Source of the DNA: Planctomycetaceae bacterium
GTDB lineage: Bacteria > Planctomycetota > Planctomycetia > Pirellulales > UBA1268
Assembly (NCBI GenBank): GCA_027486095.1
Contig: JAIXPT010000114.1
Span: 1 to 43,911, forward strand
Direction of reading: 5' to 3'
DNA length: 43,911 bases
Shown: positions 6,661-22,100 of the stretch, piece after piece
Layout of the letters: every line of letters begins with the position of its first letter
Position numbering within the stretch: position 1 is the first letter of the stretch
The notes under the pieces: model-generated
The model's database searches: none
What the model saw: only the letters and a program-made list of their open reading frames with translations
Told to the model about the DNA's origin: nothing
Translations under genes and position numbers: made by a program

Positions 6661-7572
6661 TCACTCCTCGATGAAGTAGTCGGAGTCGAGTTTCTTGACG
6701 ACGAAGGTCTGGGCGGGAGTGCAGCCTACGTCGTGGAGGATCATGAGCCGCGCGAGGGTGCGGCCGTCCACGAGGACGATCTTCGTGTCGATCTGGTCGG
6801 CGTAGTCCACGGCTTCGCTTGTGTACGTGCTTGTCGTGACGAAGACGCCCTTTCGCGCCCGGCGGCCGTGGAGGGCACCGACGAACTTGTGGATCTCGGG
6901 ACGTCCAACAGGGTCTTTCCACCGCTTGGCCTGCAGGTAGATCGTGTCGAGACCGAGGCGGTCTTCGTGGATGATGCCGTCGATGCCCTCGTCGGCACCT
7001 TTGCCGGTCAGTCGGCCGGCTGCGTCACCCCAGCCGCCGTAACCCATCGCCCGCATGAGATCGAGAACTACCTTCTCGAAGAACGCGGGCGTGCGGTCGG
7101 CGATTTCGTCAAGGAGCTGCGCGGCGAGCTCGTCATTGAGGGCCTCATGGGCCTTCTCCAGCACAGCGTCAGGCGTCTCAAGTGCAGGCTGGGGCTCGGC
7201 TGCCTCGCCCGCGCCGTCCTCACTTTGACGGGACTGCCGAAACTTCCGAAACGACTCGAACCGTTCGAGGTATGCGAGGGTGATCGAGGAGGGATTCCCG
7301 GCGAGCACTTCCCGGCCAGCATCGGAGATGGTGAACACACCGCGACGCACGCGGTCGATCAGCCCGGCCCGCTCCAGGTAGATCTTCGCCCAGCAGAGCC
7401 GATTCACGAACCGAGTCTGGGTATTGCTCGGCAGGAGCTCCTGCCGCTCGGCGTCGCTTAGGCCGAAGTCGTCCGCGATCGGGCCACGCAGGGCCGCGAC
7501 CGTCCACTCCTTGCCGTCGGCTGAGCGACGGAGAAGCGGGAGGAGCATCTCGTGGAAGGGGGGAATGGGCAT
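6661..7572 (-). CDS. mrr: Mrr-family type IV restriction endonuclease
   Basis: Mrr_N-type N-terminus (PPFHEMLLPLLRRSADGKEWTV...RFVNRLCWAKIYLERAGLI). Catalytic core GKGADEGIDGIIHEDRLGLDTIYLQAKRW...KGVFVTTSTYTSEA. Confidence 0.9.
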   Translation of the reverse strand: MPIPPFHEMLLPLLRRSADGKEWTVAALRGPIADDFGLSDAERQELLPSNTQTRFVNRLCWAKIYLERAGLIDRVRRGVFTISDAGREVLAGNPSSITLAYLERFESFRKFRQSRQSEDGAGEAAEPQPALETPDAVLEKAHEALNDELAAQLLDEIADRTPAFFEKVVLDLMRAMGYGGWGDAAGRLTGKGADEGIDGIIHEDRLGLDTIYLQAKRWKDPVGRPEIHKFVGALHGRRARKGVFVTTSTYTSEAVDYADQIDTKIVLVDGRTLARLMILHDVGCTPAQTFVVKKLDSDYFIEE

Positions 7573-7685: not shown

Positions 7686-8936
7686 TTACTGCAGTTCTAT
7701 AAGCGGTTTACGGTTCACTTTTCCATCCTCACTCTTGACCATCATGGCTCTCAGCACCATTCGAAATCGTGGATCTGCAAATGTATACGCGTCCTCTTTG
7801 GCCGTTTTCTTGAGCAGAGGCTTTGCTTCCTCGCCATTCGAGCGTGCTAGCCCACTTAGAATCTGATTGCAGTTGAGTTGTACGCCATCGGTACTGTTCG
7901 CAAACTCCCGCCGTACGATCTCCTCTATCTGCGACGTCCGGAACTCGTCCTGCTCGCACTTTGATAGAGCGTATAAGACCTGGTTCTTCCGACCGAGTCT
8001 CGTTTCCTTCTCGTTCATATGCGACTCAATGATTGAGTAGGCGTATGTCGACTTGGAGGTTGTCCAGGTGCTGTCCGCATGTTGCCAAACAGCTGCATCG
8101 ACGCGCTTTGCAGCCGAGGCGATATTGGCAACCTCAAGGCAGTATTCGTGAACCATCTGCGGCACTCGCAGTGTCACATAGCGGACGTGCTGAAGAAACT
8201 GTTCCTCTTCATCTAGGTCGAAGCCAAGAAGGCCGAACCCTTTCTTCACCAATTGATCGCATTGTTCTGCGGTCAAGATTGAGACCTCAGGGAGTTCCAC
8301 TAAACGATTTGCGACGGTTTGGCAGTTAGGCGTGCCGTAGTAGTAGCGTTTGAGGTCGGGTGGAACCCCAACAATCATGATTCTTACTCGGTACCGGGCG
8401 TACCTTTCGTCATCGCATAGCGTGATTATATCTGCTAACTCCTTGAGTAGCTCTTGGTCGTCGAATACGTTTTCTAAATTGTCAAGAACTAGAACCGCCG
8501 AACGGCCACCCGCTTTCCTATTGATGAATTCAAAGCAGCATTCGAGCGGCTCTTTTGCTCCCAGCGCATAGATGGCCTCGTGCGCGAGCGAGCCCTTCGA
8601 AACAACAGCATTTACTTCTGCCTGTTTTGTCTCGGTGTAACCGGTTTTGGTCGGTTCGATATAGCGGTCAATGACATTTTTCAGCTCAGCTGCGATGCTG
8701 CCAAACCGCGACGCGTTTGCGAGATTTGCGAGTTCGTACGTAATTCCGTGATCAGCGAGAAACTTCTTGTAGAGCCAGGTTTTTCCTGTGCCGCTACCGC
8801 CATGGAGGACGATGTGCTGCGTTGACTTGAACGCGTTTTTCATCGCTGTTTCAAGCGTCGGGCGATGAATATACATGGTCTTGCTGACCTCGGCTTGGCG
8901 TGGAGTGAATACCGTTTCGGGTGCACAGTGAGTCAT
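7686..8936 (-). CDS. P-loop NTPase (ORC/Cdc6- or AAA_16/22-like) with a probable C-terminal winged-helix; function unknown
   Basis: Walker A LHGGSGTGKTW (about 8778-8801). Walker B SAVLVLDNLE. The C-terminal part NQVLYALSKCEQDEFRTSQIEEIV looks like a wHTH. The gene is clearly AT-richer than its neighbours. Confidence 0.75.
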   Translation of the reverse strand: MTHCAPETVFTPRQAEVSKTMYIHRPTLETAMKNAFKSTQHIVLHGGSGTGKTWLYKKFLADHGITYELANLANASRFGSIAAELKNVIDRYIEPTKTGYTETKQAEVNAVVSKGSLAHEAIYALGAKEPLECCFEFINRKAGGRSAVLVLDNLENVFDDQELLKELADIITLCDDERYARYRVRIMIVGVPPDLKRYYYGTPNCQTVANRLVELPEVSILTAEQCDQLVKKGFGLLGFDLDEEEQFLQHVRYVTLRVPQMVHEYCLEVANIASAAKRVDAAVWQHADSTWTTSKSTYAYSIIESHMNEKETRLGRKNQVLYALSKCEQDEFRTSQIEEIVRREFANSTDGVQLNCNQILSGLARSNGEEAKPLLKKTAKEDAYTFADPRFRMVLRAMMVKSEDGKVNRKPLIELQ

Positions 8937-8955: not shown

Positions 8956-9219
8956 CTACTTGATCGGCATTGTGGCGGCGGTTGGCTGGTAGACGGAACG
9001 CCTAGTTAAAGGATCGGCGGGGAGAGGGGAGAGGCGGGTGTAGTAGGGGCCGACGATGCGAGTGGCGGTGGTCATGGCATTGTGGATTTCGAGGATCGTG
9101 TCTTTCGTGCGGTAGGTGCCGAAGGACTCGAGTTCTTCCTTCTTCACGATCGGGAAGGTTTCCATGGTGTGGATCACCGCGTCGCGGGGCGTCGGGAGGG
9201 CGAACTTCAAGGCGTCGCT
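8956..9219 (-). pseudogene. Remnant of the last ~80 codons of a second methyltransferase gene, paralogous to 10990..15120
   Basis: Translation ALPTPRDAVIHTMETFPIVKKEELESFGTYRTKDTILEIHNAMTTATRIVGPYYTRLSP aligns with the C-terminus of the 1376-aa MTase (ALPTPRDAVSHIMETFPIVKKKDLESFGTYRTKDTILEIYDEMATAVRTGQPYQTRLSP). Nucleotide similarity is visible over ~210 bp. No upstream MTase body is present. Confidence 0.8.
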
Positions 9220-9259: not shown

Positions 9260-10912
9260 TTATTCCGAGTCGGTGGCTGGCGATGCGGGCTCGGGCGAGA
9301 GCCGGCGCTGCCGTGCCCGCAGATATGATGTTCGACCGGATTGCTCGCCGGGTTTCCAATTGGGCACACGCGTCCAGTTCGGGTTTGTGATGCAGTCGAT
9401 CTCGCGATCTACCTGAGCCCTGAGCCTTGCGGTGATTGTGGCTTCATCGCTTTGGTCGCTCGCCGGATCGTCGTCGTGTGACGCGTCAAAAAACGCAAGT
9501 ACAACATCAGTGTGCGTAAGAAACAGACGCCGTTCTTTCCCACCTGCGCCTGCAGCGGTTAGGGATGGTCTCACCCAATAGAGTCCTGGATCCTTCGCGG
9601 TTATGACGTACCGCATCTGTACTGGGTGATCGTCGGTGATCGAGATGGGGCGATCGCGGCTGATTCGTGAATGGCTCTCCCCTTCAAGCAGCGCATCGGT
9701 TGTTTCGATGCGCCACGGCAACGATGCGTCAAGACGTTTCAATTCAAACCGAACGGTCACGCTGTCGACCTGGCCGGCGCCATACTCAGGAGCCACGACG
9801 AACTCAGGCATCGGCTCATATCGGACGACATCAAGACAGTAAGCCGTTACTGCCAAGCTTTGGTGCCACCAAGGCTTTTGGATCAACGCGTTCAAGGCAA
9901 CGGGTCCAGGCCCCGCCAGAACATCTTGATATTCGCGCACGACCGGATTGATCGCGGCGACTGCCTCTTTGAGCAGGGGGTTGGAATCAAAAGTCCGGGT
10001 AAAGCCGCTTGCGGTTCCGTGGGGGCCGTCGGCCCTCATAAGGACAAGCGGCTGGGCTCCGGCTGCTTTAAGGGCCTCTTCCTGCACGAAAGCCGGCGTA
10101 GAAGTCCAGATCGCGAAAAATAGAAGCCAGGCGGGAAGAACAAGGGCTACCAACCACGCTACTCCAGTCATCAAGTACGCCAGCCATCGTGCCGGGGGAT
10201 AAGAGAGGAAAAACCGAGGCAGAGTAGATGGCGCTCTAACAGCGGCTTCGGAATCGACGACGGTGCCGCGCGCTAGAAAAGGAATCCACGATTGCGCGAC
10301 ATGCGCCTCATCAAAGAATAAGCTGTGACCGCCCGTGCGATAGCGGGTGTTTACGCCATCCGTTTCCATGAACCCGTAAGCGCCTGAAGCTCCGTAGCGA
10401 GAGACACAAATTTCTGCGACGACGGGCCACGTGTCCGTATCGCCGCATTCATTAAGCACGGAAAAAGTGCCTTGGACTGCGATCCGGCGAGTCACGGCAT
10501 TCCATGGAAACTGGCGGCTCAGTACGCCACCGCAAAGAATAAGGCGATGCGGGCGAACAACGTCGTACTTCCGCAAGCACTCGCCCAATACATGCGTACC
10601 GAAGCTGTGGGCGATGATTGAGATACGAGCCTGCCGTTGATCAGCGAGTGCGTGATCGTAAGCCGCCTTGAGTGTGTCTACGGCAGCACGCGCTCGTGAC
10701 ACTGGAGCCAAAAAGGCAAACGGACTGAACCATCCGTATCGGACTGCAACGCATTTCGTACCCGGCAATGACCGTTCGATTTGTGTCCCAACGCGTTCCT
10801 GCCATCCGCCCAAGTCTCGGATTCCGTGCAGCAGCAAAACAACGTGTGTGATTTGTTGGTTGTCCCGCACGTCTGGCTCGTCGTGAGCGTGGCTTGTTGT
10901 AGCCATCATCAT
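9260..10912 (-). CDS. Alpha/beta-hydrolase (lipase/esterase-like) fused to a transmembrane segment and an unknown ~270-aa C-terminal domain
   Basis: HVVLLLHG oxyanion-type start. Nucleophile elbow IIAHSFGTH (Ser103). Candidate Asp in ECGDTDTWP and His in TGGHSLFF. Hydrophobic stretch WLAYLMTGVAWLVALVLPAWLLFFAIW (about 10106-10186). I recognise nothing in the remainder. Confidence 0.8.
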   Translation of the reverse strand: MMMATTSHAHDEPDVRDNQQITHVVLLLHGIRDLGGWQERVGTQIERSLPGTKCVAVRYGWFSPFAFLAPVSRARAAVDTLKAAYDHALADQRQARISIIAHSFGTHVLGECLRKYDVVRPHRLILCGGVLSRQFPWNAVTRRIAVQGTFSVLNECGDTDTWPVVAEICVSRYGASGAYGFMETDGVNTRYRTGGHSLFFDEAHVAQSWIPFLARGTVVDSEAAVRAPSTLPRFFLSYPPARWLAYLMTGVAWLVALVLPAWLLFFAIWTSTPAFVQEEALKAAGAQPLVLMRADGPHGTASGFTRTFDSNPLLKEAVAAINPVVREYQDVLAGPGPVALNALIQKPWWHQSLAVTAYCLDVVRYEPMPEFVVAPEYGAGQVDSVTVRFELKRLDASLPWRIETTDALLEGESHSRISRDRPISITDDHPVQMRYVITAKDPGLYWVRPSLTAAGAGGKERRLFLTHTDVVLAFFDASHDDDPASDQSDEATITARLRAQVDREIDCITNPNWTRVPNWKPGEQSGRTSYLRARQRRLSPEPASPATDSE

Positions 10913-10989
10913 TTCCGTGTTACTGAGCTTGGAACGTGCGCCGGAGGCGCTTGCCTGCGTGCTCGGCGTCCTTGGAGGAGTGTTGTTAT

Positions 10990-13900
10990 TCAGTCCGAGT
11001 CAGCCTCGCCGTGATGGCGGACGGATGGGTCGGCCGAAGGCGGGGAGAGGCGGGTTTGGTAGGGCTGGCCGGTGCGGACGGCAGTGGCCATCTCGTCGTA
11101 GATTTCAAGGATCGTGTCTTTCGTGCGATAGGTGCCGAAGGACTCGAGGTCTTTCTTCTTCACGATCGGGAAGGTTTCCATGATGTGGCTCACCGCGTCG
11201 CGGGGCGTCGGGAGGGCGGACTTCAGGGCGTCGCTGGCGTTACGGGACCACTCGTCGGGTGTACCCAGGTAGAGCTGGAAGAAGGCGGCGTCGAGTTCCG
11301 CTCGCAGCAGGAAACGTCGATCCTCGTCCCACGCGAACGGTGGCCCCGGATACCCGCAGTCCGCGCCAAACGGTTCAAGGTCCCACGCGGTGTACGTTAG
11401 TTCGAGGATGCGGGGGAGCAGCCATTCGGCGACCGTTGAGCTCGAAGTCCAATCGCAGTGTGAGGCGAATGCGGCCGGGGGAAGGATCGGAAACTGCCGA
11501 ACATAGTTGTATGTGACGTTCGAGCCTCCGACTTTCTGTCGTGCAGCGTAATCAAGGACGAATGCGCAGAGCATTCCATACAAGCAGCACTGATGGACAG
11601 GCGACTCGGGCGTGACCGCGAGAAGCAGTGAGTGCGCTGTGGGACTTCTTGGCAGTAGGGATGCTAATAGCGTTCGGTAATCGCTATTGCGCGCTATGTT
11701 GCGCCACCCCAGCAACCAATTGAAGCGAGTGGTGTCGCTGAGGGCGGCGCGGACGTCCGTCTCTTTTATCCAGTAGTCCGGTTGCGTGAAGCGGTGCGGG
11801 TCGGCGTGGGCGGCGGCGTCGAGGCGCGGGAGAGCGCCGACGTTGAGTTGGGCTTGGGTAGCGCCTTCGTAGGTTGAGAAGCGATGGTCGAAGTGGTTGA
11901 CCATCTTGGCTTCGATCAGCGGCAGGAATTTGCCGAGCGGCCCGTTCCAGGTGTTGCCGGTGAGCGTCTGGTCCGCGGCTTCCATCTCTGCCCGCGTGCG
12001 AAAGAGGCCGGAGTCGCTGGCCATGTTGAAGAGACCTTGAGAAAACGAGAGTCCCCACGGGTTGCCGTCGGGCCTGGTTTCGTTCCAGAGCACGCCGGTG
12101 CGGCGGTAGATGTATTTGTTGAGTTCGGCATCGGCGACGGACCGGAACGTGGGGCAGGTGCGAGTGTTGGGGTTGAGGAGCGCAAAGTCTTCGGGCGTGA
12201 GCGTGAAGTGGCAGCGCTTGTCAGCGAGGGCGGATGCCTGTCGGGCAAAGAACAGAAGGTCGGCGGCTTTGGCGGAGCCGAGGCCGACGACTACGAACCG
12301 AAAGGAATGGTGAACGTCGGCGAACAGTTTGTCTTCGTTCTCGAAGTGATAGACGGCCGCAAGCGATGAGTTCTTCACGAGGTCGTCGAAGAAGGCTTTC
12401 GTCGTGTCGTCGGTGGCGATGCCCGCCGGCACGATGAAAGCGGCGCGGCCAGTCGGGTGGAGGACGGTGCGGTTCAGTTCCGAGAACACTGCAAATGTGT
12501 TGATCTTGCCGACGGCAGTGAGTGGGAAGCGGCCTGACTCACGGATAAGCTGACGGGCTCCTTCAGATTCGCGAAAGGCGTGCGCCCATTCCTGACTGAG
12601 TTCGGGTCGAGTAACAGGAAGCGATGCAATGAGTTTCTTGCGGGCCGCCGCATTTGGCGCGGTGGCTATCTCGGGTGCCCGCTCCGCAAAGAACTCCTGC
12701 TCGTTCATCTGCAGGGTTTCCCACACGGGATTTCCCAGGATGCAGTCGAATCCGCCCGTCCAGCCGTTCGGGTTCGCGGCTTCCGGGGCCGCTGCCTCAG
12801 TAAAGACGTCGGGGAATTCGAGGTGCCAATGGAAGAACTTGTATTGCTTGGCGAGGCGTTGGATCTCGTCGAGCATCCAGGGGGCGAGGGAGTGCGGGTT
12901 GGACTCGATCGCCCGAAATACTTCCTCGGTGACGGGAAAGTCGAACTCGGGCGTTTTCTTCCAGACGAAGGCGGCGCACCAGGCGTCGGCGAGCAGCCGG
13001 CCGGATTTGTAGTCGCTCGAGGACACGAGGGATTCGTATTGGCGGGCCTTGGCGGCCACCTGGTCGAGCGAGTCGTCGGGCAGGGCCGAGAGGGCGGCGT
13101 AGACGCTCGTCAGGTTGCCGAGCTTGAGCGGAGCAGCAAAGAGGCTTTGCTGCTTATTCTTGGCGTCTTCGCGTTCCTTCTTGTTGGCCTTCTTGAAGCG
13201 AGAGCAGAGCTTCTTGTCGTCGCCCTCGATCGGCTCGAATGCCGCATCGGGGATGCCGGCAGCGAGAAGGGCGGGCGTGGCGCCGAGAAGGCTGTTGCCG
13301 ATCTTGATGTGGTGGTCGAGAAACGAGAGCGGCTTGCCCGGCTCCATCGACTCGAGCCAGAGGTTCACGCGGCAGAGCTCGGCTGCCATGGGATTCAGAT
13401 CGACGCCGTAAAGGCAGTTGCGGATGCAGTCGCGGAGGGCGGTGCGATAGGCCTCGGGGCTCGGCTCGGTGTCACCTGTGCGGACGGCTGCGAGCCGCTT
13501 GGCTAGCCGATGGGCGGCGCCAATCAAAAAGTGGCCGCTGCCCACGGCCGTGTCGCAGATTTTTAATGCGAGTAGGGCATGCTCGGCGTCGGGGCCCCTC
13601 TTGCCGGCGAGGCGTTCGGCGAGGAGCGGCTCGAGAGCTGTGTCGAGGCAGACCTGCACGAGCGAGTCGGGCGTGTAGTGGGAGCCCGAGGTTTTGCGTT
13701 CGTTGCCGGCCGAGATACCGAGCGTAAACCGGTCGGCGGCGAGCGGGGCCGTGGGGTTGATCTCGGGGTGGAGTTCGAGGAGCTGTTCGTAGACACCGCC
13801 CAGTTCCTCGCTGCCGAGGTTCTTGTAGTCCACGGGGCGGCGGCCGTCTTTGTCGACGATGTAGGAGAGGCTGCGGACGGCGGCGAGGAGCGCGGCGTTG

Positions 13901-15120
13901 GAGAGGGCGGCGGTGCCGAGGAGGCCGAGGGCGGCGTCGCTCCAGAGGTAGCCGCCGAGGCCGAGCAGGCCGAGCGGGGCGGCACCGGCGCTGCCGAGCG
14001 ACTTCATCACGAGCTTGAGCGATTCGTAGAGGTCGCGATGGCGGTTGCCACGGGTGGTGCCGGCAAGCGTCTGGAGGCGAGTGGCAGAGTAGTTTTGCTT
14101 GTAGAGGTCGCGGGCCCGGCGAGGAGCGGCGGGGTCGAGGAGCAGGTCGCGGCTCTCGGTGACGAAGAGGAAGAGCAGACGATACACAAGCCGGAGGAGC
14201 TGGCGGTAGTACTCCTGTCCGGCGAGTTGCCCAGAGGCGAGGGCCGTGCGGAGGTCGTCGTTAGCGGGGTGGGCGAGGAAGCCGCGGCCGAGGGCTTCGA
14301 TCGCTTGCTTGACGCCAGTGGAAAGCTCGCCGAGCACGCGGGTGCCGACGGTGGCCCCTTCGACGTGCCACTTCTCGATGATGCACTCGTGGGGCTGGCC
14401 GTCGGCGGGAACGTCGAACCGCGTGGCGTGGAGCGTGAGCCAGAGCAGCCTAAAATCGGCAAACGACTGCCCCTTGAACATGGCCTCCAGGTCGAACTCC
14501 ACGAACGCCTGCCGCGTCATGCTCACGTTGTCGCGGACCAGCCTGAGCTGGCGGCCGTTGGAGACAAGCCCCCAGAGGGAGCCCTCGCTGCGGTTCAGCC
14601 ATTCCTGGATGAGCGAATGCGGGGCCGAGCGGCTGGCGCCCGTCACGCCCGAGGTGCGGCGGTCGAGCGGCACGTTCACGCCGACCAGATGGATCGGCAC
14701 GTGGTTCCACTGGTGGGAGATCGGAAACGACTGGCTGGACGAGCCGGTGGCGTCGTCGAGCGTGCGTGCGGTCGGGGTGGCCGTGAGCGTGCCGTAGCCA
14801 AGCTCCTGGAAGAGGAACCGCAGCCACTGCTTGAACGTGGGGCCGGCGGCGGTGTCGAGGAGCGGCGACGCGGCGAGGTCGTCGGTGAAGGCGCGGTGGA
14901 TGTCGGTGAGCCGCGTCCAGGAGCGGGTGATCGCCTCGCCGAGCCGCTCGCTCTCCGCGAGGCCGTAATCGGAGGGCCGCAGGCCGGGGAGTTTTGCGTC
15001 TTCGTTGGCCACTCGTTCGAGCACGTCGGTGGGCAGCATGGGCCCGACCGCGGTGACGTGCTGGAAGGCGAACTGGCGGCGTCGGCGGCTGGCGGGCCGC
15101 CGCAAAATGGCTGTGGACAT
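10990..15120 (-). CDS. Large gamma-class N6-adenine DNA methyltransferase (Eco57I/type IIG/PglX/DrmMI-like); candidate DISARM DrmMI
   Basis: Motif I ICDTAVGSGHFLIGA (13522-13560). Motif IV GNPVW (12721-12732). Also SHYTPDSLV, YGVDLNPMAAELCRVNLWL, HIKIGNSLL and FFHWHLEFPDVF. 1376 aa. Confidence 0.9.
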   Translation of the reverse strand: MSTAILRRPASRRRRQFAFQHVTAVGPMLPTDVLERVANEDAKLPGLRPSDYGLAESERLGEAITRSWTRLTDIHRAFTDDLAASPLLDTAAGPTFKQWLRFLFQELGYGTLTATPTARTLDDATGSSSQSFPISHQWNHVPIHLVGVNVPLDRRTSGVTGASRSAPHSLIQEWLNRSEGSLWGLVSNGRQLRLVRDNVSMTRQAFVEFDLEAMFKGQSFADFRLLWLTLHATRFDVPADGQPHECIIEKWHVEGATVGTRVLGELSTGVKQAIEALGRGFLAHPANDDLRTALASGQLAGQEYYRQLLRLVYRLLFLFVTESRDLLLDPAAPRRARDLYKQNYSATRLQTLAGTTRGNRHRDLYESLKLVMKSLGSAGAAPLGLLGLGGYLWSDAALGLLGTAALSNAALLAAVRSLSYIVDKDGRRPVDYKNLGSEELGGVYEQLLELHPEINPTAPLAADRFTLGISAGNERKTSGSHYTPDSLVQVCLDTALEPLLAERLAGKRGPDAEHALLALKICDTAVGSGHFLIGAAHRLAKRLAAVRTGDTEPSPEAYRTALRDCIRNCLYGVDLNPMAAELCRVNLWLESMEPGKPLSFLDHHIKIGNSLLGATPALLAAGIPDAAFEPIEGDDKKLCSRFKKANKKEREDAKNKQQSLFAAPLKLGNLTSVYAALSALPDDSLDQVAAKARQYESLVSSSDYKSGRLLADAWCAAFVWKKTPEFDFPVTEEVFRAIESNPHSLAPWMLDEIQRLAKQYKFFHWHLEFPDVFTEAAAPEAANPNGWTGGFDCILGNPVWETLQMNEQEFFAERAPEIATAPNAAARKKLIASLPVTRPELSQEWAHAFRESEGARQLIRESGRFPLTAVGKINTFAVFSELNRTVLHPTGRAAFIVPAGIATDDTTKAFFDDLVKNSSLAAVYHFENEDKLFADVHHSFRFVVVGLGSAKAADLLFFARQASALADKRCHFTLTPEDFALLNPNTRTCPTFRSVADAELNKYIYRRTGVLWNETRPDGNPWGLSFSQGLFNMASDSGLFRTRAEMEAADQTLTGNTWNGPLGKFLPLIEAKMVNHFDHRFSTYEGATQAQLNVGALPRLDAAAHADPHRFTQPDYWIKETDVRAALSDTTRFNWLLGWRNIARNSDYRTLLASLLPRSPTAHSLLLAVTPESPVHQCCLYGMLCAFVLDYAARQKVGGSNVTYNYVRQFPILPPAAFASHCDWTSSSTVAEWLLPRILELTYTAWDLEPFGADCGYPGPPFAWDEDRRFLLRAELDAAFFQLYLGTPDEWSRNASDALKSALPTPRDAVSHIMETFPIVKKKDLESFGTYRTKDTILEIYDEMATAVRTGQPYQTRLSPPSADPSVRHHGEADSD
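11030..11240 (-). repeat. Direct-repeat partner (inside the intact MTase 3' end) of the remnant at ~9010..9220
   Basis: Example: 11101-11215 gatttcaaggatcgtgtctttcgtgcgataggtgccgaaggactcgag...cacgatcgggaaggtttccatg versus 9084-9170 gatttcgaggatcgtgtctttcgtgcggtaggtgccgaaggactcgag...cacgatcgggaaggtttccatg. Same orientation. Confidence 0.8.
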
Positions 15121-15152: not shown

Positions 15153-15743
15153 CTACGGGCTGTGCCCGGGTTGGTGACGGGCATGAAGGGCCAGAAGCGG
15201 CTTCAAGTCGCGGGCGTCAGCGGCGCGGAGACAGGCGAGGTATTCCGAACGAATCGGGCTCTCAGCGACGATCGTCGCCGGCCATTCCACGATCGGGCAA
15301 TCGTGGATCCGCAGCCAGATGTTCGAGAGCATCCGCGACCAGCGGCCGTTGCCATTGCGGAACGGGTGGATCTGGACTGCCCGATGATGGATGAGAACAG
15401 CCTGCTCGAGGATGTCGGGCATATAGGGCTCGCGACCGCGAATGTCGTCGCACAGCTGGGCCATGTGCTCGCCGATGTGGCCGGGATCGCTGCCCAGCGA
15501 GAGTGGCCGGTCGCGGATCTGGCCCGCCCACGACCAGACGTCGCCGAACATTTCGCCGTGGAGCCGGAGCAGCCATCCGAAATCGAACGTGGCGACCTTG
15601 CGGGACGGAACGCCCAGGAGATAGCGGATCACGGCCCGCCTAATGTTCTCCGCCTCTGCGACGGCCAGTTGGGCGCGGGTGCGAATGTGCCGCTTGCGCA
15701 GACCGTCGAAATCGCTGAGCGGCGTTTCCCCGTCGGTGGCCAT
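15153..15743 (-). CDS. Fic/DOC family protein (mobile mystery protein B type)
   Basis: Fic motif HPFRNGNGRWSR. 196 aa. Sits 3 nt downstream of the HTH gene. Confidence 0.9.
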   Translation of the reverse strand: MATDGETPLSDFDGLRKRHIRTRAQLAVAEAENIRRAVIRYLLGVPSRKVATFDFGWLLRLHGEMFGDVWSWAGQIRDRPLSLGSDPGHIGEHMAQLCDDIRGREPYMPDILEQAVLIHHRAVQIHPFRNGNGRWSRMLSNIWLRIHDCPIVEWPATIVAESPIRSEYLACLRAADARDLKPLLALHARHQPGHSP

Positions 15744-16258: not shown

Positions 16259-19109
16259 GTTCTGCCGGTCCGGACGGCAAGAGGACGTAGGCGCCCAGCA
16301 CGTCTACGGGCAGTTGCGGGCGGACGTCGTACTTGAGGCCCTTGATCCGGCTCTCGTCCCGCAGCTGGCGGTGGACGGCCAGAAGTGTCTTCGCCCGCTC
16401 GGCCGCGAAGCCGTCGAGATGCGGAGCGAGGGCGGCGGTGGCGTCTACGACCTTGCCCACGAACTGACGAGCCTGCTCCGGGGCGATGTTGGCGTCGGGG
16501 GCGGCCGTCAGCAGAGTCTCGGCCTGCTCGGGCGAGAGCCAGGAAGCCTGCTCCGGGGCGCCCTCGAAGCCCACGATGCAGCACTCCTCGGCCAGTAGCT
16601 CGCGGGTCTCGCTGCCCACCGTCCGCAGGATGTGGAATCGCAGCCGCAGCAAGAGGAGCGTGGTGCGCTTGGCGACGGCCTGCGTGCGGATCGCCCCCGA
16701 CCGGGCCGCCTTCGACGCCGCCGGCTCGTCGATCGCCGTGCCCACGAGAAAACTCGCCAATGCCTCGACGAACGGGTGCGTGCGGACGAGCAGGATCGTC
16801 TTGTCCACGTGGGGCAGCTCGAAGACCGCGTCGAACCGGTCAGGTAGGCCCTCGGGCAGGCCGGCTTTGAAAGCCGGATCGGTCGCCGTAAGGTCGATCG
16901 ACAGCATCGTGCGGCCGCCGGCCGTCTCGACCTGCTTCACGATGCCGCCGAGCGTTTCCACCGCCCGCGTCACGAATCGCTCCACGTCCACGGTCTTGCC
17001 GATCGACTGGCAGGCGTCGATCCAGCTTGCCGCCACGTCTGTGCGAATCGCCTCCTGGGCAAACATCGTGCGGGTGCGCTTCGACCGCTCGGCCTCCCGA
17101 TCCCACTCCGCGTGAAGATCTGTGGTGGTCGGTTTGAGATACTCCTCGACCTCGGGGAGCAGCTTTTGCGTGGCCTTGGCTGTGCCGCCCCGCAGCAAGA
17201 GCCCCTCGAAGATCGCCTCGATCGCCTTCTCCGTGTTGATCGGCACAGGCACGCTCACGCCCAATGTCTTCTGGATGCTGCGGTGCTTGTTGATGAGGAT
17301 GTCGAGGACGATGCCGTCGATGCCGTTGTCGGCCCCGTAGAGGAAGGCGATCTCCACCGTGGGCTGCCGCTGGCCATAGCGATCCACACGGCCCTCACGC
17401 TGCTCATGGCGGGTGGGATTCCAGGCCAGGTCGTAGTGGACGACGGCGTCGAACGATTCCTGCAGGTTGATGCCCTCGGACAGGCAGTCGGTGGCGACGA
17501 GCAGCCGCTTCTCGAATGCGGCAAGTTTCTCGACCCGCTCCTCCCGTTCGGCCGGCGGCAACGCCCCGGTGACGCAATCGATCTCGAGACCTTTGACGGC
17601 GAGGCGGTTTCGCAGTTCTGCCGCCACATACTCGGCTGTTGCGATGTAGCGGCAGAAGACGATCGGCGATCGCTTCCGCTTGAGCATGTCCTTGAGCAGC
17701 TTGACGAGGGCGGCGAGTTTGGCGTCGGCGTCGCCCTCCAGTTCTGAGGCCCGCTTGGCGAGCGTTTGCAGTCGGCGGCGGTCGGTCGGGGTAGGGGAGT
17801 CGTCGATCTCTGCCCCGGCCGAAGCATCGTCTGCCTCGTCAGCGTCCTCAGTGTCGGCATCGGTGGCGGCCGCTCGCCCCAACTCGTTGGCTTCCTCCTC
17901 CGACGCCGCCCCCAGGCCACGGGCCCGGTTCACGAGCGTCGCGGCCGCGGCAGCCGGACTCGACGAGAGGCTTCTCAAGAGAGCGATTGCGCTCCACCAC
18001 CGCACCCGCTGCCGACGCTTGTCTTCCCCCTCTACGGAGACGAGTTCCCGGGCGAAGTCGAGGCAGTCATCGAAGAGAGCCTTGTAGGGAGCCGACAGAG
18101 AGTAAGTGAGATCCTTGTGGACCTCCCGCTTTGGAAACGGCGTGGCAGCGTCGAGATAGGCCTCGATGTCGGCGCGGCGCCGCTGGATGAAGTGGCCCGC
18201 AAGGTGGCGTCGCTGTGTCTCGTGGGCCGGGCCGGAGAGATCCTCTGGCAGGTCGGCGAGGGTGGGGTCGAGCAGGCCGACGAGCGAGCGGAAGGCGGCC
18301 TCGTTGCCGCTGTGGGGCGTGGCCGTGACGAGGACGAGGTGGCGATCGGGCGACTTGGCGAGGTCGAGAAGCAGCTCGTGCCGCTGATGCCGTGAGCCGC
18401 GGGACTCGACGTCGCGGGTGCAGGTGTGGGCCTCGTCCACGATCACCAGTTCCGGGCACGTGCGGAGGAAGTCGGCTCGATAACGATTCGACTTGATGAA
18501 GTCGATCGAGATCACGAGGTGGTCGTGTACCTCGAAGATCGACTGGTCAGCGGCACACTCCCGCTCGAGCCGAGCGACGGTGCTCGCCAGCACGAGCTTG
18601 GCGTCGATGTGGAACTTGGCAGAGAGTTCCCGCTGCCACTGCTCTGCGAGATGTGGCGGGCAGAGCACGGCCAGTCGCTTTGCCTCACCGCGAGCGAGCA
18701 ACTCGGCTGCAATGAGGCAGGCCTCGACCGTCTTGCCCACGCCCACGTCGTCGGCGATCAGCACCCGGGCCTTGGGCTGCTTGAGAGCCACGAGCAGGGG
18801 CACGAGCTGATAGGGACGCGGCGTCACCGCGATAGAGCCAAATGAGCGGAAGGGGCCGGCACTGTTGCGAACGCCAAGCCTGACCGCGTCGCGAAGCAGC
18901 CCGCAGGAGCGGTGGTCGCCAGTGTGGACGGGGTCGGGCGGCGTGAAGACAGCGGGCTCAATCGGCTCGAGATCGGGCACAATGCCCGTGACTTCTTCCG
19001 CCACGCCGGCCAGCGGCCGCAGCATGACAAGGTGATCCTGCGACTCGGGCAGCACGACCCATTCCCGGCCACGGGCCTTCACGAGTGTTCCAATCGCGAA
19101 GCGACTCAT
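16251..19109 (-). CDS. SNF2-family helicase; candidate DISARM DrmD
   Basis: Motif I ADDVGVGKTVEA. Motif II LVIVDEAHTC. Helicase-C LLVATDCLSEGINLQ. Motif VI YDLAWNPTRHEQREGRVDRYGQ. Start set at ATG 19107-19109 (MSRFAIGTLVKARGREWVVL), which overlaps the upstream TGA as ATGA. The ORF-track extension to 19397 is Arg/Pro-rich and lies inside the preceding gene. Confidence 0.9.
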   Translation of the reverse strand: MSRFAIGTLVKARGREWVVLPESQDHLVMLRPLAGVAEEVTGIVPDLEPIEPAVFTPPDPVHTGDHRSCGLLRDAVRLGVRNSAGPFRSFGSIAVTPRPYQLVPLLVALKQPKARVLIADDVGVGKTVEACLIAAELLARGEAKRLAVLCPPHLAEQWQRELSAKFHIDAKLVLASTVARLERECAADQSIFEVHDHLVISIDFIKSNRYRADFLRTCPELVIVDEAHTCTRDVESRGSRHQRHELLLDLAKSPDRHLVLVTATPHSGNEAAFRSLVGLLDPTLADLPEDLSGPAHETQRRHLAGHFIQRRRADIEAYLDAATPFPKREVHKDLTYSLSAPYKALFDDCLDFARELVSVEGEDKRRQRVRWWSAIALLRSLSSSPAAAAATLVNRARGLGAASEEEANELGRAAATDADTEDADEADDASAGAEIDDSPTPTDRRRLQTLAKRASELEGDADAKLAALVKLLKDMLKRKRSPIVFCRYIATAEYVAAELRNRLAVKGLEIDCVTGALPPAEREERVEKLAAFEKRLLVATDCLSEGINLQESFDAVVHYDLAWNPTRHEQREGRVDRYGQRQPTVEIAFLYGADNGIDGIVLDILINKHRSIQKTLGVSVPVPINTEKAIEAIFEGLLLRGGTAKATQKLLPEVEEYLKPTTTDLHAEWDREAERSKRTRTMFAQEAIRTDVAASWIDACQSIGKTVDVERFVTRAVETLGGIVKQVETAGGRTMLSIDLTATDPAFKAGLPEGLPDRFDAVFELPHVDKTILLVRTHPFVEALASFLVGTAIDEPAASKAARSGAIRTQAVAKRTTLLLLRLRFHILRTVGSETRELLAEECCIVGFEGAPEQASWLSPEQAETLLTAAPDANIAPEQARQFVGKVVDATAALAPHLDGFAAERAKTLLAVHRQLRDESRIKGLKYDVRPQLPVDVLGAYVLLPSGPAEQA

Positions 19110-22100
19110 GGGGCCTGCCTTCCAAAGAGCCCGGGATGGGCGGCCACTGTGTCTTCCCAGTCGCCCTGAGCCGTGAATCGCAGGACGGTCCAGCCACAGT
19201 CGTTCACACACGCCTCCTGCTCGCGGTCGCGGGCCTGGCGGGTGGGGAACTCGTGCATCGGGCCGTCCACGTAGACGATCGTCATGTCGTCGGTATAGAC
19301 GAAGTCGGGGCGTGTCAGGCAGCCGTTGAGCGACGTCGGCACGTGCTGGGCGGCAGTGGGCAGTTTCAGATTGCGGGCTTCGAGGAACTCGAGCCACGCA
19401 CGTTCAAGACTGCTTTCACAGCGGCCAAGCAGGCTCTGGAGATGTGCCGCCCGCGGGGCTGCCGAAGACGAGGCCGCCACGCCAGCCGTCGCAAGCTGCA
19501 GGAGAAAGTCGCGGATGAGGTGGCGGTTGAGACGGTGGTGGTCGGGCTGGTTGGCATACGTCATTAGGCAGTCGTAGCAGGCCGTTGAGCAGTCTTCGCT
19601 CGCCCGCGGCGCTCGCTTGCGGTCCTCGCCCGTCGTGGGGTCGAAGTGGCAGATCTCGAGGGCCTGTCGAGCCACGCGGCGGAGGGCGTCGGGCTCCGCC
19701 TGCAGCCGCTGCAGAACGCCGGCGCCGCCTTCGCTCGATTCGAAGAAGAGAATCTGCCGCCGAATGTCGCGGCTCGGCATCGGCTCCGCGGCAAGCTCCT
19801 GGTCTTCCAGTTGAAACTCCACCTGGATCGCCGCCTTAAGGGCAGCCTGCAGGGATGCCATAAAGTCGAGCGGCGCGTCGCCCGTCGGCTCGAAGAGCAG
19901 CGTGTTGCGGGTGTCGGTGACGAACGGGATCACGCGGGCGACCTGCGGTCCTTCCACCTCGGCATCGCCATCGCCGGGCCGGTTTTCAGGATCGCCCACC
20001 CATTCACCAGTCTGTTCGTTGATATGGAAACCTTGTCGGTTTTCCAGCTTCTGGCGGAACCAGCCGAAGTTGATCCGCCACAGCTCGGCATTGCGGCCGA
20101 ACGTGAGACGGGCGAGAGGAATGCCACTGCACGTGACATCGCTGGTGGTGAATGACGGGACGCCGCCCGCCCGCTGGAAGCGGAACGCCGTCCGCACGTC
20201 GAAGCCCTGCTTCTGCCGCTCGTCTTCGTCGCAACTGATCCGCTCACGGCGGCGGGTGAGCACGTTGGTCAGCCGCAGCAGGCGGCCCTCCGCCTCAGGC
20301 AGCTCCGCATGGCAAAACTCGCAGCGGTCGTCGTCTGCCGCACCATCGACGGGGTGGAGATAGCCACAGGCGCGGCACTGCTTGGCCTTATGAAGCACGA
20401 GCCTCTGCTCGGAGTCGCTCGGCGGCAGGAGCACTTTTGTGACCTGATACCGCTGTCCCTCGTGGTAGACGAGGGACTTAGGGCCAAACTCGCTGATCGC
20501 CAGGAACCGGGGCCGGTTGAGGTATTCCTGGTCGCGGGCGCCAGCGCGCCCCGGGATGAAGGCCGAGAGCGGCAGCCGGGGGAAGTTGTAGCCCGGGAGA
20601 AAGCCCTCGCTGGCGAAGTAGCGATAGGAGTAGAAGTCGGACTGGTGACTCCCGGAGGTGTCTTGATTGAGCAGCAGGTCACGCTGGTTCTCGGCCTCTT
20701 GCCGAAACCGTTTCGCCTCGGCCTTATGTCGTGGGGAGATGGAGTTGTCGTTCTCCCGCTTGTGCTCGCGCTCCCGCTGGGCCATCGCCGCTCGGTAGAG
20801 CTGCCGCCAACGGTCGCAGGAACGATCGAAACGCTCCGGCAACTGGGCAAGCACCTCGTCGAGCCACGCGGGGGTGTACCAGCCGGCGACAGCCAGTTTC
20901 GGTGCGATCGAATCGAGCAACTGCCGGGCACGGCGGCGGGTGCGGGTCATCGCCGGTGCATTGTCGAGATGGCTCTGCACCTCGGCCGACAGCGGCATCC
21001 GCGGCTGCTGGTCGAGCATGAGCAGGTCGCGGAGGCTGTCACGGAGGTTGAGCCCCGCTTCCGACAGCCAGATCGCATGGACGTGCGACCGGACGAGCTC
21101 CTCGTTGGCGACGTCGACTCGCGGCGGTGCCACCGAGCCGGCAACCATCTTCTCCTGGCGCTGGAAGAAGTACTGGTCGTGTGAACTGCCGGCCGTGCAG
21201 TAGGTGATCACGATCGCAGGCTGGCCGCTCCGGCCAGCACGCCCGGACCGCTGGGCGTAGTTCGCAGGTGTCGGAGGCACATTGCGCAGGTTGACGGCGT
21301 TCAGATCGGCGATGTCGACGCCGAGCTCCATTGTCGGGGAACAGAACATGACGGGGAGCTTTCCAGCGCGGAACTCCGCCTCCCGCTCCTCCCGCTTGTC
21401 AGACGGCACTTGCGCGGTGTGTTCACGGCCCTCCATGCCGGCCACGTCGATGGCCGCAGTCTTGTAGAAATTCACGAAGAACTTGTTGGGCCGCAGGCCT
21501 GCCGCCGGTGAACGTGGCACCCGCAGCGGGCAGCGGAACGCCTGCGTGCCGTCAGCCGGCACCCAGCGGAGCGTGGAGGCATTGAGTTGGTAGGCCGGAT
21601 CGTCGGCCTTGCCCGAACAGACGAGATTCGTGCGAGTGAGCACGCGGCAGATATCACGAATGACGCCCTGCACTTCATCGAGCGGCACTCCAGCGGCAAT
21701 GTTGCCGGGCCGGCGCAGATAGCGGCCGAGCGTGCCGCGGGCGCTCAAGAAGACATTCGGCGAGCGCGCGTCGTTGCCCTTTGCACGGGGCTGTGCCAGC
21801 CGGGCCGTGACGAGCTCCTCCTCGGGATCGATCTTCCAGCCCTCGACGAGCCATTGGCTGCTTTCCCGCTTTGTCGCCTCCTGCCACTGCTCCGTCAGGC
21901 AGTCGGCCTGAATGGCTAGTTCCCGACGCAGGTAGTTGAGGAGCGTCTTGCACACCTCATGCCGTGCCTCGCCCGACGCGGCCACGAGGCAATGATGGGT
22001 GCCCTGCCAGTCGGCCGCGCTGTTGCAAATGTCTGCGAGCGATTCGTATTCGACCGTCAGCAGGCCGCACTGCTCGAGGTTGGGCATAGAGAGCCGCCAG

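Follow-up and report, generated by a model that had tools for sequence, protein, structure and literature searches.

A predicted membrane-anchored alpha/beta-hydrolase as a candidate conflict effector in a mobile defence island of a Planctomycetaceae bacterium

A 43,911-nucleotide stretch of a Planctomycetaceae bacterium genome (assembly GCA_027486095.1, contig JAIXPT010000114.1, positions 1 to 43,911; hereafter the window) carries a gene at 9260-10912 for a 550-amino-acid protein, the target of this analysis, in which an alpha/beta-hydrolase domain is followed by a hydrophobic block and a separate C-terminal domain. The initial annotation, made from the sequence alone, had put it forward as a membrane-acting effector, and this idea gained support at the level of the protein family, since related hydrolases were fused to TIR, SEFIR, kinase and STING-like domains and one adjoined a CD-NTase gene. 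The target is very likely an active membrane-tethered hydrolase, and a role as a conflict or defence effector is slightly favoured; the combined statement, that it is a stand-alone, membrane-acting, lipase-like defence effector, would stand at about even chances. The new element is a large and unmodelled family of lipid-hydrolase-type candidate effectors, within which the C-terminal domain of the target occurs in two clusters only, and current thinking is not overturned by it.

The target gene begins with three ATG codons in tandem, and the database copy starts at the second of these. The region contained one open reading frame with the motifs at the positions annotated initially (H29-G30, A101-H-S103-F-G105, G157-D-T-D160 and G194-G-H196-S). 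Intact orthologues with 61-89% identity were located on independent Logan contigs, and the gene arrangement around the target was assembled identically in four separate sequencing runs. The ratio of nonsynonymous to synonymous substitution rates (dN/dS) was 0.12-0.20 for the whole gene, 0.1-0.2 for the hydrolase domain and 0.06-0.18 for the C-terminal domain. Intact orthologues on independent contigs and low dN/dS in both domains make the reading frame more than a chance occurrence, and the target is a real gene on which purifying selection acts. Searches of Pfam, NCBIfam, PADLOC and PDB (phmmer) with the whole protein returned nothing significant; the best Pfam matches, DUF900 and Hydrolase_4 (E 0.12, approximately 12 bits), were positioned around the nucleophile elbow and were far below the curated cut-offs.

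A Ser-Asp-His hydrolase layout had been proposed for the N-terminal part of the protein, and both the fold of an AlphaFold2 model built on 12 homologues and the invariance of the triad in 149 sequences bore it out. The model was confident over residues 20-230, with a predicted local distance difference test score (pLDDT) of 70-92. The oxyanion-hole HG motif is located at residues 29-30, and the nucleophile elbow AHSFG around Ser103 is formed in the model by strand 96-102, the A-H-S103-F-G turn and helix 105-115 at a pLDDT of approximately 90. Asp160 follows strand 151-157 and His196 follows strand 187-192, which gives, in both the model and the alignment, the order nucleophile-acid-histidine with each residue behind a separate strand. 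Ser103, Asp160 and His196 were invariant across the 12 homologues, and together with G105, G128, N154, G174, G177 and F67 they were also invariant in 149 representatives that were 22-37% identical to the target.

A Foldseek comparison with the PDB gave 269 matches at E<=1e-3, and the best 50 of the 269 were without exception alpha/beta hydrolases or hydrolase-fold proteins. The highest target-normalised template modelling (TM) scores among the matches listed belonged to the lid-less minimal lipases 1i6w (LipA, 0.68) and 6nkc (0.66-0.68), followed by acyl-protein thioesterases, cutinases and monoglyceride lipases. The target did not exceed the curated cut-off of any Pfam Abhydrolase-clan model. 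Because the triad and the other residues are invariant across the 149 representatives, the enzyme is very probably active and the domain a catalytically competent alpha/beta-fold serine hydrolase.

The hydrophobic stretch that had been described behind the hydrolase was recovered as a single block at residues ~243-272. Its Kyte-Doolittle maximum over 19 residues was 2.37, and AlphaFold2 placed a continuous helix over residues 239-271. An equivalent block was present 130-150 residues past the serine in approximately 135 of 148 relatives, and the conserved unit is the hydrolase plus a predicted membrane anchor. An N-terminal signal-like segment was absent in 145 of 147 family members, and lysine and arginine were enriched on the N-terminal flank of the transmembrane block (58 vs 29, Wilcoxon p 6.5e-4). 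The lack of a signal-like segment and the positive-charge bias favour a topology in which the catalytic domain would be cytoplasmic and the C-terminal domain extracytoplasmic.

When 1.84 billion representative proteins were searched by profile, 3,795 clusters (50% identity) matched at E<=1e-3 and 470 clusters at E<=1e-30. Outside the cluster of the target itself and the relative P0013, the alignment among the matches listed covered only residues ~15-290, the hydrolase and the hydrophobic block. The family ranged over Planctomycetota, Proteobacteria, Acidobacteriota, Actinobacteria, conjugative plasmids and some viral contigs; relatives were present on 15 IMG/VR contigs and none was found in GenBank phage records. 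The sole sequence models touching the domain were the Pfam entries DUF676 (a putative serine esterase), DUF900, Hydrolase_4 and LIDHydrolase, always near the nucleophile elbow, and a few relatives passed an Abhydrolase model (for example P0030, with 30.2 bits for Abhydrolase_1 relative to a cut-off of 25.8).

The flanks of the hydrolase-transmembrane unit were hypervariable, as 196 N- or C-terminal extensions formed 136 sequence clusters, of which 112 had a single member. Pfam domains identified in 78 longer members included TIR_2 (12), TIR (6), SEFIR (4), FGE-sulfatase (4), fn3 (2) and helix-turn-helix (HTH) domains (2), in addition to protein kinase, AbiTii, AAA_35 and TPR or LRR repeats. 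Wherever a TIR, SEFIR, kinase or HTH domain could be located, it was N-terminal to the hydrolase, and the fn3 domains were behind the transmembrane segment. The PADLOC models bSEFIR, ThsB, PDC-S66 and PD-T4-6 matched the fused domains only and never the hydrolase-transmembrane unit. Judged by these domain matches and by the gene neighbourhoods described next, the target belongs to a family that is repeatedly fused or coupled to immune signalling domains.

The hydrolase domain of the relative P0012 was 34% identical to that of the target over 225 residues (E 3e-23) and shared its HG, AHSFG, D and H motifs; the protein was without a transmembrane segment. Its C-terminus was STING-like (Pfam prok_STING E 5e-4, 20.4 bits, below the cut-off of 27.1) and also matched the STING part of the PADLOC TIR-STING effector model at positions 159-256; a STING-like domain was found only in this relative. 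The P0012 gene ends 22 nt ahead of a CD-NTase gene (PADLOC Cyclase, 3.6e-105). Due to the STING-like fusion and the adjoining CD-NTase gene, P0012 looks like an effector of a cyclic oligonucleotide-based antiphage signalling system (CBASS). Alpha/beta-hydrolase-STING fusions have been mentioned bioinformatically (PMC10732462). In locus L008 (10001-12086) P0012 is directly upstream of the CD-NTase and an HTH/Peptidase_M78 pair is located on the far side; by gene content, the operon looks like a compact CBASS-like system with an alpha/beta-hydrolase effector.

Other relatives were found in several settings of a mobile or variable kind. One adjoined AbiE and an integrase. In Enterobacter and Klebsiella, IncF conjugative plasmids carry a three-gene operon with a relative as its final gene (L091 2552-7726, Enterobacter hormaechei IncF plasmid NZ_CP124122.1, and L092 1768-6723, a Klebsiella variicola plasmid). 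The operon codes for a hypothetical protein of 1110-1190 residues, a hypothetical protein of 146-154 residues and a 384-residue protein containing the family hydrolase. The N-terminal region of the 384-residue protein is annotated by RefSeq as a response regulator in the Klebsiella copy, and the large partner protein had no match in the PDB. The operon is located beside a GNAT/DUF1778 toxin-antitoxin pair and a tyrosine recombinase, and looks like an unannotated candidate system.

Among 80 genome loci, two conserved operon types were identified in which the hydrolase-transmembrane gene is last. The Pirellula type (L023 8521-10735 and 12 similar loci, 13 in total) has a partner of approximately 340 residues whose gene end overlaps the start of the hydrolase-transmembrane gene, and the Burkholderiales/Pseudomonas type (L015 8463-10708 and 6 similar loci, 7 in total) has partners of approximately 340 and 141 residues ahead of it. 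The partner genes of these operons had no match in Pfam or PADLOC. An uncontrolled tblastn comparison of the defence proteins of the window with the neighbourhoods of the relatives gave only three matches, too few to inform.

The last part of the target had been described as unassignable, and it was: the final ~270 residues returned no Pfam, NCBIfam or PADLOC match and no match to PDB sequences. The C-terminal domain was found, among the matches listed from the 1.84 billion representatives, only in the cluster of the target and in P0013, a 572-residue protein that is 34% identical to the target overall and 28% within this domain. The motifs EYGAGQVD, LPWR, RYVITA, YWVRP and LAFFD were conserved, and the domain is constrained yet very rare. 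AlphaFold2 produced a beta-rich core followed by two helices, with a pLDDT of 30-50 when the protein was modelled at full length and of 44 when the domain was modelled alone. Foldseek matches of the isolated domain were generic Ig-like or beta-sandwich proteins with poor query TM scores of 0.2-0.3 and are not trusted.

Further searches for the C-terminal domain yielded rejected candidates. Its profile against 5.8 billion proteins returned solely a transposase reading frame of an insertion sequence (IS) fused to a P0013-like end, which was set aside as an IS-insertion artefact. In this 378-residue reading frame (P0161), DDE-transposase domains are fused with the final ~80 residues of a P0013-like protein; it is evidently an IS element inserted in a homologue of the C-terminal domain. 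A metagenome scan with the motifs of the domain gave no match, and an apparent extension of L020 into the domain was too weak for homology.

The window is a mobile defence island. It includes a DUF3987/Toprim primase, an AbiL pair (AAA_21 and RloB), Mrr, an AAA_22 ATPase, the target, a methyltransferase, a Fic protein, an SNF2 helicase, a 1746-residue DEAD/MZB(DUF1998)/DUF559 helicase, a TnsA-like protein, a DUF4011 helicase-restriction endonuclease, AbiE and a serine recombinase. PADLOC assigned the SNF2 helicase to the DpdE and DrmD models and the 1746-residue helicase to DruE and more weakly to DrmA, and the label DISARM-like (for defence island system associated with restriction-modification) for the helicase-methylase module is fair but approximate. 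Coordinates of the target and of the features around it are collected in Table 1.

Table 1. Positions in the window of the target gene, its encoded domains and the neighbouring features of the cargo slot
Feature	Position	Strand	Basis or remark
Target open reading frame, 550 aa	9260-10912	minus	Open reading frame list; orthologues; dN/dS
Alpha/beta-hydrolase domain, aa 20-235	10208-10855	minus	AlphaFold2, Foldseek, invariant triad
Catalytic codon Ser103	10604-10606	minus	
Catalytic codon Asp160	10433-10435	minus	
Catalytic codon His196	10325-10327	minus	
Hydrophobic block, predicted membrane anchor, aa 243-272, Pro260 mid-block	10097-10186	minus	Hydropathy scan
Beta-rich C-terminal domain, aa 281-520	9353-10072	minus	No family or PDB match; dN/dS 0.06-0.18
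Basic/polar C-terminal tail, aa 521-550	9263-9352	minus	Alignments; helix 524-538 predicted, low confidence
77-nt spacer, methyltransferase stop to target start	10913-10989	minus	Sequence; alignment with L001 and L004; conserved in L001
1376-aa N6-adenine methyltransferase (Eco57I/N6_Mtase; best PADLOC model DrmMI)	10990-15120	minus	Upstream flank of slot
Direct repeat copy A, functional methyltransferase 3' end	11027-11235	minus	
Direct repeat copy B, methyltransferase 3'-end remnant (reading frame 8956-9210)	9011-9219	minus	
AAA_22 ATPase, second cargo gene, GC3 0.58	7686-8936	minus	Absent from L001 and L004
Mrr type IV restriction enzyme	6661-7572	minus	Downstream flank of slot; 2.1-5.2 kb past methylase in related loci

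The target is a horizontally exchanged cargo in a variable slot of this island between the methylase and Mrr genes. The G+C content at third codon positions (GC3) was 0.59 for the target and similarly low for the AAA_22 gene, relative to 0.80-0.82 for the methylase, Fic, both helicases and Mrr. The 3' end of the methylase gene is duplicated as a direct repeat of 209 nt (85% identical, spacing 2016 nt), the second copy of which belongs to a remnant between the target and the AAA_22 gene. The remnant consists of 84 codons with a native-type GC3 of 0.82 and 74% amino acid identity to the methylase C-terminus, and it keeps its own stop codon 19 nt ahead of the AAA_22 start. A metagenome search with the methylase C-terminus recovered nine related loci in which the SNF2-methylase junction and the downstream Mrr were conserved and the methylase-Mrr interval of 2.1-5.2 kb was occupied by differing same-strand genes with a GC3 of 0.5-0.68. 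The alternative cargo included FRG-like, HNH-like, DUF262-like, DUF1353-like, TPR-AAA, Lipase_3 and other genes, most of these labels having been assigned by eye from the sequences, and the interval held no member of the hydrolase-transmembrane family in any of the loci searched. The low GC3, the duplicated methylase 3' end and the other cargo in related loci mark the target as one of the alternative cargo genes of a methylase-Mrr hot spot.

In the orthologue contigs (L001-L003 and L004), the methylase end, spacer and hydrolase gene were collinear with the window, and homology ended ~25-40 nt past the hydrolase stop, as read from the alignment blocks. Past the orthologue, one arrangement has a 255-residue membrane protein followed by Mrr and the other has a Lipase_3 protein. 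Recombination inside the flanking methylase and Mrr genes appears to have exchanged the cargo and left the truncated gene ends as scars. The locus shows the swapping of defence cargo in concrete form. A remnant of the Mrr 5' end, comparable to the methylase 3' remnant, was observed in L094 (8475-8564). An invertible shufflon, of a kind described for DrmMI (PMC9881135), was considered for the duplicated methylase end and rejected since the repeat is direct and not inverted; no contigs joining both repeat copies were found in four runs, all of which had the same arrangement.

The low GC3 extended to orthologues and relatives of the target, with values of ~0.48-0.62 (including L001 2075-3727, L004 1170-2825, L010 1654-3372 and L005 10001-11290) relative to 0.72-0.83 for their neighbours. 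Recent transfer alone is insufficient to account for it because the low GC3 persists between orthologues at a synonymous divergence (dS) >2. One possible cause is selection that keeps a toxic product poorly adapted in its codons; another is repeated re-import.

It had also been suggested that the target is functionally attached to the DISARM-like locus. On this reading the hydrolase would be an accessory effector of the DISARM/Druantia-like module, co-transcribed with it and triggered by it, perhaps in place of a missing DrmC nuclease. The arrangement in the window fits such a role: the methyltransferase stop codon at 10990-10992 and the target ATG at 10912 on the same strand leave the gap of 77 nt that had been noted, and the spacer had no predicted promoter-like or terminator-like site. 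The methylase-spacer-hydrolase order was kept in all orthologue contigs (the window, L001-L003 and L004) at 61-100% protein identity and dS>2, and overall divergence was similar, with the methylase part 70-73% and the hydrolase 62-86% identical. Co-occurrence with the helicase-methylase core was kept in the window and L001-L004 and missing from seven related SNF2-methylase loci (L093-L099), which have other genes and no hydrolase-transmembrane family member behind the methylase. These seven loci were 65-73% identical over the methylase C-terminal query, and full-length methyltransferase matches in four of them were 84-87% identical.

In addition, no methylase lies near P0013, the one other protein with the C-terminal domain and a full-length homologue; at 95 loci that hold family relatives, this methylase was in no case present within 10 kb. 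The GC3 of the target was sharply unlike that of the methylase in all loci, and the target matched no Drm, Dru, Dpd or Lmu model of PADLOC, in which its neighbours matched DrmMI, DrmD/DpdE and DruE/DrmA. Adjacency to the methylase is therefore limited to the gene's own small clade and the proposed attachment was not borne out. These comparisons put the target outside the core of the helicase-methylase system, and a role as its accessory effector is quite unlikely.

The preferred reading is that of a stand-alone effector acting at the membrane. The hydrophobic segment directly behind the catalytic domain would tether the enzyme at the cytoplasmic membrane, and once triggered, Ser103-Asp160-His196 may split the ester bonds of a membrane constituent, with an inner-leaflet phospholipid as the most plausible substrate. 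The resulting damage would cost the cell its membrane integrity before phage progeny were complete, so that the infection would be aborted. The variable C-terminal domain, probably outside the membrane, may hold the enzyme off or sense the trigger. We infer the topology, substrate, trigger and defence phenotype of the target, and a lipid as the substrate in particular is proposed tentatively.

Several points weigh against this proposal. Alpha/beta hydrolases act on ester, amide and thioester substrates of many kinds. The hydrophobic block is long (30 residues in the target, family median 32) and has a central proline, so a re-entrant hairpin is possible instead of a spanning helix and could place the C-terminal domain in the cytoplasm, and the predicted models of that domain are unreliable. 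Pfam, NCBIfam and PADLOC have no model for the hydrolase-transmembrane module and, for that reason, no validated defence protein is considered to contain it. None of the RNA runs searched held the target gene. Finally P0008, the nearest distant homologue with a long context, is located among housekeeping-looking genes (MutS, RbfA, an acetyltransferase and QueC).

The context of P0008 would suit a non-defence membrane esterase or lipase, engaged for example in envelope lipid or lipoprotein remodelling and carried into the island by recombination. Such an enzyme would also be consistent with the ordinary esterases, lipases and thioesterases that were the nearest structural matches, with the JGI name of one relative (pimeloyl-ACP methyl ester carboxylesterase) and with the conserved-operon partner genes, which have no defence annotation. 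It accounts less well for the patchy mobile distribution, the atypical GC3 and a slot in which FRG-like, HNH-like, DUF262-like and Lipase_3 genes (labels by eye) are the alternatives. The repeated fusion of relatives to TIR, SEFIR, STING-like and kinase domains and the coupling of one to a CD-NTase also argue against it, and hypervariable flanks are untypical for housekeeping enzymes. A non-defence function is seen as unlikely.

The membrane toxicity envisaged for the effector might alternatively serve addiction or competition, stabilising the island or hitting rival mobile elements or bacteria and not phage. The island is rich in toxin-antitoxin-type modules (AbiE, Fic), plasmid-borne relatives are found beside GNAT/DUF1778 pairs, and the GC3 that remains low across a long divergence possibly reflects selection for low expression of a toxic product. 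Relatives also had weak matches to the model of the type VI secretion system (T6SS) phospholipase Tle3, though these were limited to two proteins (E 7e-4 and 6e-3) and were below the curated cut-off. No small immunity or antitoxin gene adjoins the target, however, and the downstream gene differs with each arrangement. No secretion-system genes or secretion-associated domains accompany it, no T6SS genes were seen among the scanned open reading frames of the window and the target does not qualify as a Tle effector. A toxin of this kind is very unlikely on balance.

A broader extension of the effector reading concerns single-chain transmembrane immune proteins. A widespread and unrecognised class of such proteins may be built around the hydrolase-transmembrane module as its constant part, and in this class a hypervariable extracytoplasmic domain, in the target the beta-rich C-terminal one, would detect phage at the envelope and activate a cytoplasmic lipase-like effector across the membrane. 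If true, this would amount to outside-in receptor signalling in bacterial defence, with the TIR, SEFIR and kinase fusions and the partner operons as variations of it, but we consider it improbable. For the effector reading itself, protection against phage by one member of the family would add a new effector module to the defence catalogues, supply a function for the alpha/beta-hydrolase-STING proteins and provide an annotation for thousands of hypothetical proteins.

Other observations concerned the neighbours of the target. A Fic/DOC gene (PADLOC PDC-S04/SoFic-like, 15153-15743), which differs from the other insertions in its native-type GC3 of 0.82, is present between the SNF2 helicase and methylase genes in the window only; the two genes abut in L094, L095, L097, L099, L100 and L101. 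The methyltransferase gene is a mosaic at ~11400-12600 (residues ~840-1250). Identity between loci was 38-56% over residues ~1100-1250 and 80-100% in neighbouring segments, and an otherwise near-identical contig from run X1 departed from the window mainly at 11900-12500, a pattern that looks like the swapping of specificity regions. The listed reading frames of the DEAD/MZB and SNF2 helicases overlap by ~290 nt (19106-19397); since the SNF2 homology of L094 begins only at ~residue 70, SNF2 translation probably starts at a codon downstream of the GTG at 19397.

The system named as a precedent in the initial annotation, Rst_Hydrolase-3Tm, is a two-gene system of a HAD-like hydrolase and a separate transmembrane protein (Rousset et al. 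2022, PMC9122126). Its likeness to the target is verbal only, in that a hydrolase is combined with a membrane protein in a mobile defence hotspot and abortive infection is suspected. The target is an alpha/beta-hydrolase on a single polypeptide with one hydrophobic block, and its downstream neighbour varies between loci; the precedent consequently fails. The target had no match at E<=0.01 in the copy of PADLOC-DB that was searched, which may lack the model behind the PADLOC-type 'Hydrolase-TM' calls reported in a preprint.

A structural likeness is provided by LipA of Bacillus subtilis (1i6w) and the rumen lipase Lip_vut1 (6nkc), which share with the target an alpha/beta core of ~200 residues and an Ala-His-Ser-x-Gly elbow in place of GxSxG; the elbow of LipA is AHSMG. 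These lipases are secreted and soluble, without a transmembrane segment or an extra domain, and sequence identity to the target was 13-14%. The YGxSGxxGF loop and the N154 signature of the target's family are not known from LipA-type minimal lipases.

The hydrolase-STING CBASS effectors exemplified by P0012 have a homologous hydrolase domain, which presumably acts as the killing module of an immune protein. P0012 has a STING-like sensor and a CD-NTase neighbour and no transmembrane segment, whereas the target has a transmembrane anchor and an unrelated beta-rich C-terminal domain. No CD-NTase or cyclase gene was found among the 19 open reading frames of the window scanned with Pfam and/or PADLOC, and the C-terminal domain of the target had no family match to a cyclic-nucleotide sensor (STING, SAVED or similar).

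The patatin, CapV and LmuA models of Pfam and PADLOC did not match the target, which would nevertheless share its proposed logic with the CapV-type patatin-like effectors of CBASS, where a lipid-cleaving serine hydrolase destroys the membrane and aborts the infection. The lipase/hydrolase effector variants of Lamassu follow the same lipid-cleaving abortive logic. Patatin uses a Ser-Asp dyad in a different fold, and the CapV and Lamassu effectors are soluble proteins that a nucleotide or an SMC-like partner switches on. The known lipid-cleaving effectors of abortive infection use other folds or soluble proteins, in contrast to the target with its Ser-Asp-His triad and predicted membrane anchor.

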